From IMG/VR virus record IMGVR_UViG_3300014890_000015, positions 1-45,853 of that record: 45,853 bases of DNA; one strand, given 5' to 3'. The DNA is from a virus (taxonomy: Duplodnaviria; Heunggongvirae; Uroviricota; Caudoviricetes). The notes under the pieces are model-generated. The model ran no database searches. It was not told where the DNA came from and worked only from the letters and a program-made list of their open reading frames with translations. The position numbers and the translations under genes were made by a program. Shown in pieces: positions 26,211 to 26,364 of this stretch (positions are counted from its first letter, which is position 1; each line of letters starts with the position of its first letter).

Positions 26211-26285
26211 TGGAGCGGGTAGCGGGAATCGAACCCGCATCATCAGCTTGGAAGGCTGAGGTAATAGCCATTATACGATACCCGC
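26211..26285 (-). tRNA. tRNA-Gly (anticodon UCC)
   Basis: 75-nt cloverleaf: acceptor GCGGGTA/TACCCGC, anticodon stem TCAGC/GCTGA, loop CTTCCAA, T-arm GCGGG-TTCGATT-CCCGC, 3' CCA. Confidence 0.8.
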
Positions 26286-26288
26286 ATA

Positions 26289-26364
26289 TGGTGCCGACTA
26301 CCGGAATCGAACTGGTGACCTACTGATTACAAGTCAGTTGCTCTACCTACTGAGCTAAGTCGGC
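26289..26364 (-). tRNA. tRNA-Thr (anticodon UGU)
   Basis: 76-nt cloverleaf: acceptor GCCGACT/AGTCGGC, anticodon stem ACTGA/TCAGT, loop CTTGTAA, TTCGATT T-loop, 3' CCA; one A.C mismatch in T-stem. Confidence 0.75.

Follow-up and report, generated by a model that had tools for sequence, protein, structure and literature searches.

tRNA genes in the slot between the late antiterminator gene Q and the lysis genes have been a topic ever since the genomes of Stx phages and Shigella phages were published; Stx phage 933W, for instance, carries ileZ-argN-argO between Q and the lysis or toxin genes. tRNA genes for Asn(GUU) and for Thr(UGU) occur between Q and the lysis genes in phages SfI, Sf6, ST64T and P21, for which Thr(UGU) downstream of Q has been reported together with an ACA bias (PMC3636060). 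The locus described here, in a viral sequence of 45,853 nucleotides (IMG/VR record IMGVR_UViG_3300014890_000015; hereafter the window), resembles these phages in that its tRNA genes lie in the same slot and on the late strand, and serve codons that the host seldom uses and the phage overuses, with Thr(UGU) recurring. It differs from them in that it contains a Thr-Gly pair alone; in the window, an internal promoter and a leader hairpin are indicated within the cassette. The finding of tRNAs at this position is ordinary, and the pair itself is already known, with annotations in several phages and hundreds of E. coli genomes; the new content is modest and comprises a host origin with deletion of tyrU, a conserved private promoter and leader, carriage that is untied to codon usage, and an STnc100-like RNA. 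With a probability of roughly 60%, and on the basis of sequence comparison, we propose that the locus is a working tRNA cassette of host origin, an RNA-only “moron” residing in the slot between Q/tR′ and the lysis genes, and that it would provide, from its own promoter, extra decoding of ACA and GGA.

ARAGORN calls exactly two tRNA genes in the whole 45.8-kb window, both on the minus strand: tRNA-Thr(UGU) at 26289–26364 (Rfam RF00005, 73.8 bits, E = 2e-14) and tRNA-Gly(UCC) at 26211–26285 (65.6 bits, E = 3.7e-12; the gathering score of RF00005 is 29 bits). The original prediction had placed a pair with these anticodons, 3 nt apart, at 26211–26364, and had named tRNA predictors as the check; ARAGORN rejected neither cloverleaf and assigned no differing anticodon, and the gap between the genes is indeed 3 nt (26286–26288). 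As both genes lie on the minus strand, the order of transcription is Thr and then Gly. Both genes encode the 3′ CCA, and their anticodons lie within 7-nt loops. The Thr gene is identical to K-12 thrU at 76 of 76 positions; the Gly gene matches glyT at 73 of 75, and its two differences form one compensated acceptor-stem pair (C6:G66 to U6:A66). Given the identity to thrU and the unchanged identity elements of glyT—which we take to be pairs 1–3, position 73, C35 and C36—both tRNAs are probably charged and used in translation.

The closest relative in sequence is the thrU-tyrU-glyT-thrT-tufB locus of the E. coli chromosome, which is separate from the phage pair and shares with it the thrU and glyT sequences and a few flanking bases. 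A BLAST comparison with the K-12 locus aligns window positions 26366–26288 with locus positions 687–765 (100% over 79 nt) and window positions 26287–26211 with locus positions 972–1048 (97.4% over 77 nt). As these two blocks (156 nt together) abut with zero extra bases, the cassette is the host operon minus a clean 206 nt that include tyrU. The retained host flank amounts to two bases before thrU, one after thrU and two before glyT, so that the 3-nt spacer TAT (26286–26288, minus strand) consists of 1 nt of the thrU 3′ flank and 2 nt of the glyT 5′ flank; in the BLAST against the K-12 locus, the flanks matched neither the thrU promoter nor thrT/tufB further than 2 nt upstream or 1 nt downstream. 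Compared with the chromosomal operon, the phage cassette thus lacks tyrU and a 121-nt spacer (together the 206 nt), thrT and tufB; its promoter and leader are unrelated to those of thrU; and it is sited in the late region of a prophage. We take thrU and glyT to be the sole K-12 genes for the Thr(UGU) and Gly(UCC) isoacceptors, and on that assumption a copy of the pair on a prophage means twice the gene dosage.

The window contains RecE, RalA, hok/sok and a Doc-like toxin, and we therefore regard it as a Rac-like lambdoid prophage. The genes around the tRNA pair all lie on the minus strand, in the order NinB-like DUF1367 (27544–28155), YbcO (27254–27544), a Q-like late antiterminator of the DUF1133 type (26715–27257), the tRNAs, two holins, an M15 endolysin (24428–24811), and the small and large terminases. 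The Q-like gene matches PF06576 (1.7e-107) and PHROG 753 (2e-79; “anti-termination protein Q-like”), with an additional weak match to PF06530 (Phage_antitermQ). The first holin gene of the lysis cassette (25073–25465; PF16931 Phage_holin_8 and PHROG 198 holin) marks the downstream edge of the tRNA slot; the second lies at 24808–25095. An intrinsic-terminator hairpin at 26609–26634 (minus strand; 10 pairs and a T-rich tail in a consensus scan) starts 80 nt past the Q stop codon and closes the Q module, probably acting as tR′. In phages with the same Q and no tRNAs, homology to the window stops at ~26600, ~115 nt past the Q stop and just beyond this hairpin; Q and the terminator are thus one module, and the tRNAs lie in a variable slot behind it. 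tRNA arrays of other phages that begin with Met are likewise placed just 3′ of a tR′-like hairpin. The location originally proposed for the pair is therefore borne out on each point: it shares its strand with the Q-like gene, the holins, the endolysin and the terminase; it lies downstream of Q and of a tR′-like terminator; and its slot holds tRNAs in other lambdoid phages, both in annotated records and in the literature (PMC3636060).

Several smaller elements surround the slot. There are two candidates for pR′, neither of them confident: TTGGCT-18-TATATT at 26780–26751, from a promoter scan, and a weaker TTGATT-17-TTCAAT just past the Q stop, found by eye. Between the sRNA terminator described below and the holin gene, the motif GGACTTTGTCCC[G/A]CG occurs twice, 70 nt apart (25697–25711 and 25767–25781), and is adjoined by a terminator-like hairpin on the plus strand (25778–25801).

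Upstream of tRNA-Thr, a promoter scan identified a putative σ70 promoter at 26428–26455 (minus strand), with a −35 element TTGCGA (26455–26450), a 16-nt spacer and a −10 element TATCAT (26433–26428); a 16-bp spacing is also found in rrn P1 promoters. It is followed by a predicted 53-nt leader hairpin (GGUUCUGAGGGGGA...UCCCCUGAAGAACC; 26368–26420, minus strand) that ends 3 nt before position +1 of tRNA-Thr. Among 36 distinct leader variants, 35 keep TTGnnn-16 nt-TAnnAT 6–8 nt before the hairpin (shuffle mean 0.22); the −35 TTG, the invariant 16-nt spacer, the −10 TAnnAT and the hairpin are kept amid a mean column identity of 58%. Across cassettes the hairpin begins with GGTTC and closes with GAACC at least 3 nt before the tRNA, and this stem base does not vary; the sixth pair shows covariation (T-A, C-G, T-G), and pairing of the inner stem is held through G-U in diverged loci, which points to a structure at the RNA level. 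Arrays that begin with Met have no leader hairpin and instead carry their own TTGCAn-17-TATTAT promoter and a GC-rich discriminator directly before the tRNA. These features suggest that the cassettes are transcribed as units in their own right and do not simply ride on the late transcript. Given a conserved promoter of its own, expression of the cassette need not depend on the late transcript, and lysogens, rather than only induced cells, probably express such cassettes. A hammerhead-like reading of the CUGAG...CUGAAG leader was discarded: the nucleotide that would form the core U is variable and changes in concert with its partner, and is thus a paired position. Rfam searches of the leader at permissive thresholds gave chance-level matches only, which, like those for the RNA downstream of the pair, were to miRNA precursors, amino-acid leaders and GcvB.

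Directly after tRNA-Gly lies an RNA of ~390 nt (25818–26210, minus strand) that is unannotated, PGAP labelling nothing there. From tRNA-Gly to the terminator, the minus strand folds at −149.2 kcal/mol (z = −7.7), against −88.7 kcal/mol (z = −2.7) for the plus strand. A 112-pair consensus structure from 21 homologues (74–94% identity) has 98.8% of its cells paired, compared with 41–54% in slid controls, and changes on both sides occur at 7 pairs (31 cells), compared with 1–4 pairs (1–6 cells) in the controls. Fold and conserved structure divide the RNA into a 5′ domain of several hairpins (25998–26210), with a hairpin of ~35 bp at 26091–25996, and a 3′ domain (25818–25997) that ends in a strong and conserved intrinsic terminator (stem 25852–25833, then a T run). 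A coding reading of 25702–26019 (plus) or 25963–26118 (minus) was rejected; neither has a Pfam match, the fold is strand-asymmetric, and single-nucleotide indels among homologues rule out a conserved ORF.

The 3′ domain matches Rfam STnc100 (RF02076) at 17.7 bits, below the gathering score of 47, so that Rfam would leave 25818–25997 unlabelled; the rest of the downstream RNA gave chance-level matches only at permissive Rfam thresholds, with no match for the 5′ half. In the reverse direction, a covariance model built from the 3′ domain of the window matches the Rfam-confirmed STnc100 of phage JLK-2012 (locus L006) and of locus L061 at 42.9 and 35.7 bits (rough E-values of 1e-7 and 6e-6). The domain shares with STnc100/PasD a closing helix, a CCUC...GAGG hairpin, an CGGGAGGCACCCG hairpin, an A/U-rich linker and a terminator, and occupies the same slot between Q and the lysis genes; it differs in its position behind tRNAs and a structured, conserved stretch of ~210 nt. 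Given the reciprocal model matches and the common hairpins, we read 25818–25997 as a divergent sRNA domain of the STnc100/PasD type. Genuine STnc100 genes are present at further cassette loci, in L061 266 nt after tRNA-Gly. In locus L010 (IMG/VR), an STnc100-like domain is present twice (2688–2866 and 3459–3639), once upstream and once downstream of the Thr-Gly pair. A recent preprint ties PasD to STnc100, describes sRNAs in the same phage region, and regards nearby tRNA hits as integration remnants (10.64898/2026.05.13.724894). The anatomy of the present locus suggests that tRNAs near Pas/STnc100 sRNAs are phage-borne cassettes rather than such remnants, and an STnc100/PasD-related RNA directly after tRNAs bears on how prophage sRNA loci are now interpreted.

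The pair is widespread in E. coli. A query with the pair returned 6,579 places in 5,421 E. coli genomes, with up to six per genome, and ~1,150 copies among 5,426 genomes are additional to the chromosomal locus; identical 154-nt pairs carry tRNA-Thr and tRNA-Gly labels in RefSeq E. coli genomes. In IMG/VR, the fused pair with a T[A/G]T spacer, searched as a junction pattern, is present in at least 119 contigs. Species representatives with the pair belong only to Escherichia, Shigella flexneri and Citrobacter braakii, apart from one contig assigned to Corallococcus (423 bp, low coverage) that is probably contamination. That the same fusion and 3-nt spacer recur in these contigs and genera suggests a single origin of the fused pair and its subsequent wide spread. 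Phages vB_EcoS-683R6, phi467, PhiR47_1, JLK-2012 and SerU-LTIIb have the pair annotated, and in each of five annotated records with full context it lies between Q and the lysis genes. vB_EcoS-683R6 has the whole Q-to-terminator module in common with the window at 96.5% identity; phi467, an Stx2 phage, has the same fused pair and, unlike the window, stx genes upstream; and prophages of E. coli W and of a DH5alpha assembly carry the same or a near-identical annotated cassette. Other annotated cassettes differ from that of the window by added Met/Lys, Met/Arg or Asn tRNAs, and SerU-LTIIb by a Thr-bodied copy with a UCU anticodon, which the window lacks. Within the literature collection that was searched, nothing specific came up on thrU/glyT in prophages or on tRNAs of LT-II prophages.

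Among 137 instances of the cassette, 55 consist of Thr-Gly alone, 39 of Met(CAU)-Lys(UUU)-Thr-Gly, 18 of Met-Arg(UCU)-Thr-Gly and 7 of Asn-(decayed Thr)-Gly. The Thr copy is identical to thrU in 74 of 136 cases; 61 Gly copies equal glyT and 36 equal the compensated U6:A66 form, and where the two alleles differ both sides are in most copies changed together. The thrU identity of these Thr copies and the two-sided changes in Gly argue for purifying selection on working tRNAs. Departures from this pattern also occur. The annotated tRNA-Thr of JLK-2012 (4081–4156), in which G42T, T43C and other changes break the anticodon stem, is rejected by ARAGORN, though it scores 49 bits with Rfam; this copy is probably decaying. 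Thr genes with a switched anticodon are found in SerU-LTIIb (locus L007, 5044–5119) and in loci L082 and L083: one has a thrU-type body with a UCU anticodon and is called “Arg” (G35C, A31G and changes in the D arm), and another has a UUU anticodon and is called “Lys”.

The original prediction also held that ACA and GGA would be enriched in the AT-rich cargo genes of this element. Enrichment over host core genes is indeed seen: in mechanically called phage ORFs, compared with a host reference of only 28 annotated K-12 core genes, ACA reaches 15.1 vs. 5.0 per 1000 (3.0-fold) and GGA 15.2 vs. 5.8 per 1000 (2.6-fold), ratios that would drop to ~2 with the somewhat higher genome-wide values of E. 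coli. The two codons show the largest absolute excesses after AAT; AGG, AGA and ATA are enriched more by ratio, and the phage has no tRNAs for them. Specificity for AT-rich cargo is not seen, however, as late genes (ACA/GGA 12.8/16.7 per 1000) and early genes (18.7/13.0 per 1000) are enriched alike; the most AT-rich gene (4443–5561, GC 0.36) contains no GGA, and the genes richest in GGA are the late genes 9005–11068 and 1016–2569. The other tRNAs found in related arrays (CAU, UCU, UUU, GUU) match the remaining over-represented codons.

A comparison within one Q family separates codon demand from carriage. Of 80 IMG/VR loci with a Q at least 93% identical, 77 had enough sequence downstream of Q for a judgement; Thr-Gly is present in 21 of these (in one alongside two further tRNAs), and 54 are without any tRNA there. 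Among loci that each yielded over 2,500 called codons, ACA/GGA usage is 16.3/14.4 per 1000 in the 19 with the pair and 16.5/14.4 in the 45 without tRNAs. Given this equality, the demand, though real, is generic, and the cassette is an accessory that need not be carried: it is dispensable and is not co-adapted to the codon usage of its carrier. Codon supply nevertheless appears to be the best-supported function, extra decoding capacity being the simplest benefit that the tRNAs would bring.

We propose that thrU and glyT, joined by deletion of tyrU, are carried as an RNA-only “moron” in a Rac-like lambdoid prophage, and that they are most likely transcribed from their own σ70 promoter with a start at ~26420. 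The transcript would run through the 5′ hairpin leader, tRNA-Thr(UGU), tRNA-Gly(UCC), the structured RNA and the STnc100/PasD-type sRNA, and stop at ~25833. During lytic growth, read-through by Q-modified polymerase from the late promoter would add to this transcription, and phage replication would raise the number of cassette copies. Cleavage by RNase P and processing at the 3′ end would set free two tRNAs, each either identical to that of the host or functionally interchangeable with it, and the result would be more decoding of ACA (plus ACG/ACU) and of GGA/GGG. Activity of the promoter, co-transcription, processing and a fitness benefit from the tRNA supply are inferred in this proposal. 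An extension of it is that the locus is a self-contained stable-RNA operon expressed in the lysogen as a single primary transcript with two minor tRNAs of host origin, that tRNA processing frees the sRNA, and that the tRNA hits adjacent to Pas genes are cassettes of this kind; we consider the extension tentative, at somewhat less than even odds. If it is true, the prophage converts its host at the levels of the tRNA pool and the sRNA network.

A different role for the same tRNAs would be counter-defence, in which phage Thr(UGU) and Gly replenish tRNAs destroyed or blocked by host or prophage systems, candidates being PARIS AriB and toxSAS enzymes such as FaRel2. Among the tRNAs cut by AriB, which are Lys(UUU), Thr(UGU) and Asn(GUU), the Thr species is a prime target, and tRNAs of phage T5 rescue infection (PMC12409363); FaRel2 pyrophosphorylates precisely tRNA-Gly and tRNA-Thr (PMC11559606). 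Related arrays carry Lys(UUU) or Asn(GUU), the remaining AriB targets. The Lys(UUU) of Met-Lys-Thr-Gly arrays (L005, L008 and similar loci), with a body that is presumably unlike host lysT, has by eye UUUAAGUUGA after the anticodon and no UAAUC/A site; the adjacent Thr keeps that site, an arrangement that may matter for counter-defence in those phages. Like the anti-PARIS tRNAs of T5, the window carries a phage-borne Thr(UGU), the isoacceptor cleaved by AriB (PMC12409363, PMC11464382). The T5 tRNAs, however, are substituted at or near the 40/41 cleavage site, whereas the window copy is the cleavable host tRNA: it is identical to thrU, including U36-A-A-U-C/A41, and has none of the substitutions at positions 39–41 that define a nuclease-resistant decoy (PMC12409363). 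Positions 36–41, where the protective T5 tRNAs are mutated (PMC12409363), are changed in 0 of 136 cassette copies; the Gly allele differs at pair 6 of the acceptor stem, which is not among the FaRel2 determinants (pairs 1, 2, 4 and 5; PMC11559606); and a PADLOC search of ten sampled cargo proteins of the window gave no match, including none to a tRNA-targeting system. With a cleavable Thr and a Gly change outside the determinants, protection could come only via dosage. Evasion of the nuclease is not supported, and we consider counter-defence as a whole unlikely.

The tRNAs might instead serve mainly as punctuation, any tRNA supply being secondary, that is, as RNase P or RNase E cut signals that free the STnc100-like sRNA or part the leader from the lysis mRNA; the conserved structured RNA and STnc100-type domain directly behind them on the same strand, the similar placement of STnc100 in L061, and the related prophage sRNA PasA, reportedly cut from a longer transcript (10.64898/2026.05.13.724894), are consistent with such a role. 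However, 41 cassettes have a different downstream sequence, STnc100 lies far from the tRNAs in JLK-2012 and upstream of them in L010, and exact identity to thrU, intact anticodons and a compensated acceptor stem are needless for processing signals, so that we regard this role as improbable. We give similarly low weight to a neutral hitch-hiker, host DNA acquired by illegitimate recombination and spread via a recombination-prone slot to the benefit of neither phage nor lysogen. About 70% of same-Q relatives do without the cassette at equal codon usage and some copies are decaying, as in the ARAGORN-rejected Thr of JLK-2012 with its broken anticodon stem; yet most copies are intact, a compensatory pair distinguishes the Gly alleles, both hexamers of the promoter and their 16-nt spacing were kept while the surroundings fell to 58% mean column identity, and ~1,150 extra copies are spread across E. 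coli genomes. Finally, tRNA genes are common as attB sites, and the preprint cited above reads tRNA hits near PasA/PasC/PasD as marks of integration (10.64898/2026.05.13.724894); the present pair might accordingly be a remnant marking the attachment of a phage or satellite. Both tRNAs are full length rather than partial, however, and are internal to the late operon, placed between Q and the holin and flanked by phage genes; the same fused pair holds this internal position in many phages, annotated phage records have no integrase within the 4–6 kb annotated flank on either side, and the chromosomal thrU-glyT locus is elsewhere. Full-length genes internal to the prophage exclude the pair as the attachment site, in agreement with the original prediction, and leave a remnant of integration with a very slight probability. 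Among these alternatives, a functional cassette supplying host-type tRNAs remains our preferred reading.

Other features of the window were recorded in passing. The early region contains 10 N at 31000–31009, a masked stretch or an assembly gap. The nin region holds a Doc-like toxin gene (28605–29099, minus strand; PHROG 577, 1e-48; GC 0.41), for which no link to the tRNAs was found; Doc toxins phosphorylate EF-Tu. A sok antitoxin RNA (29648–29820, minus strand; Rfam 109.6 bits) lies with a hok-type ORF (29498–29710), and the antitoxin RNA of the RalR/RalA system is present at 44119–44297 (minus strand; Rfam 216.7 bits); sok and RalA RNAs are typical of Rac-like prophages.
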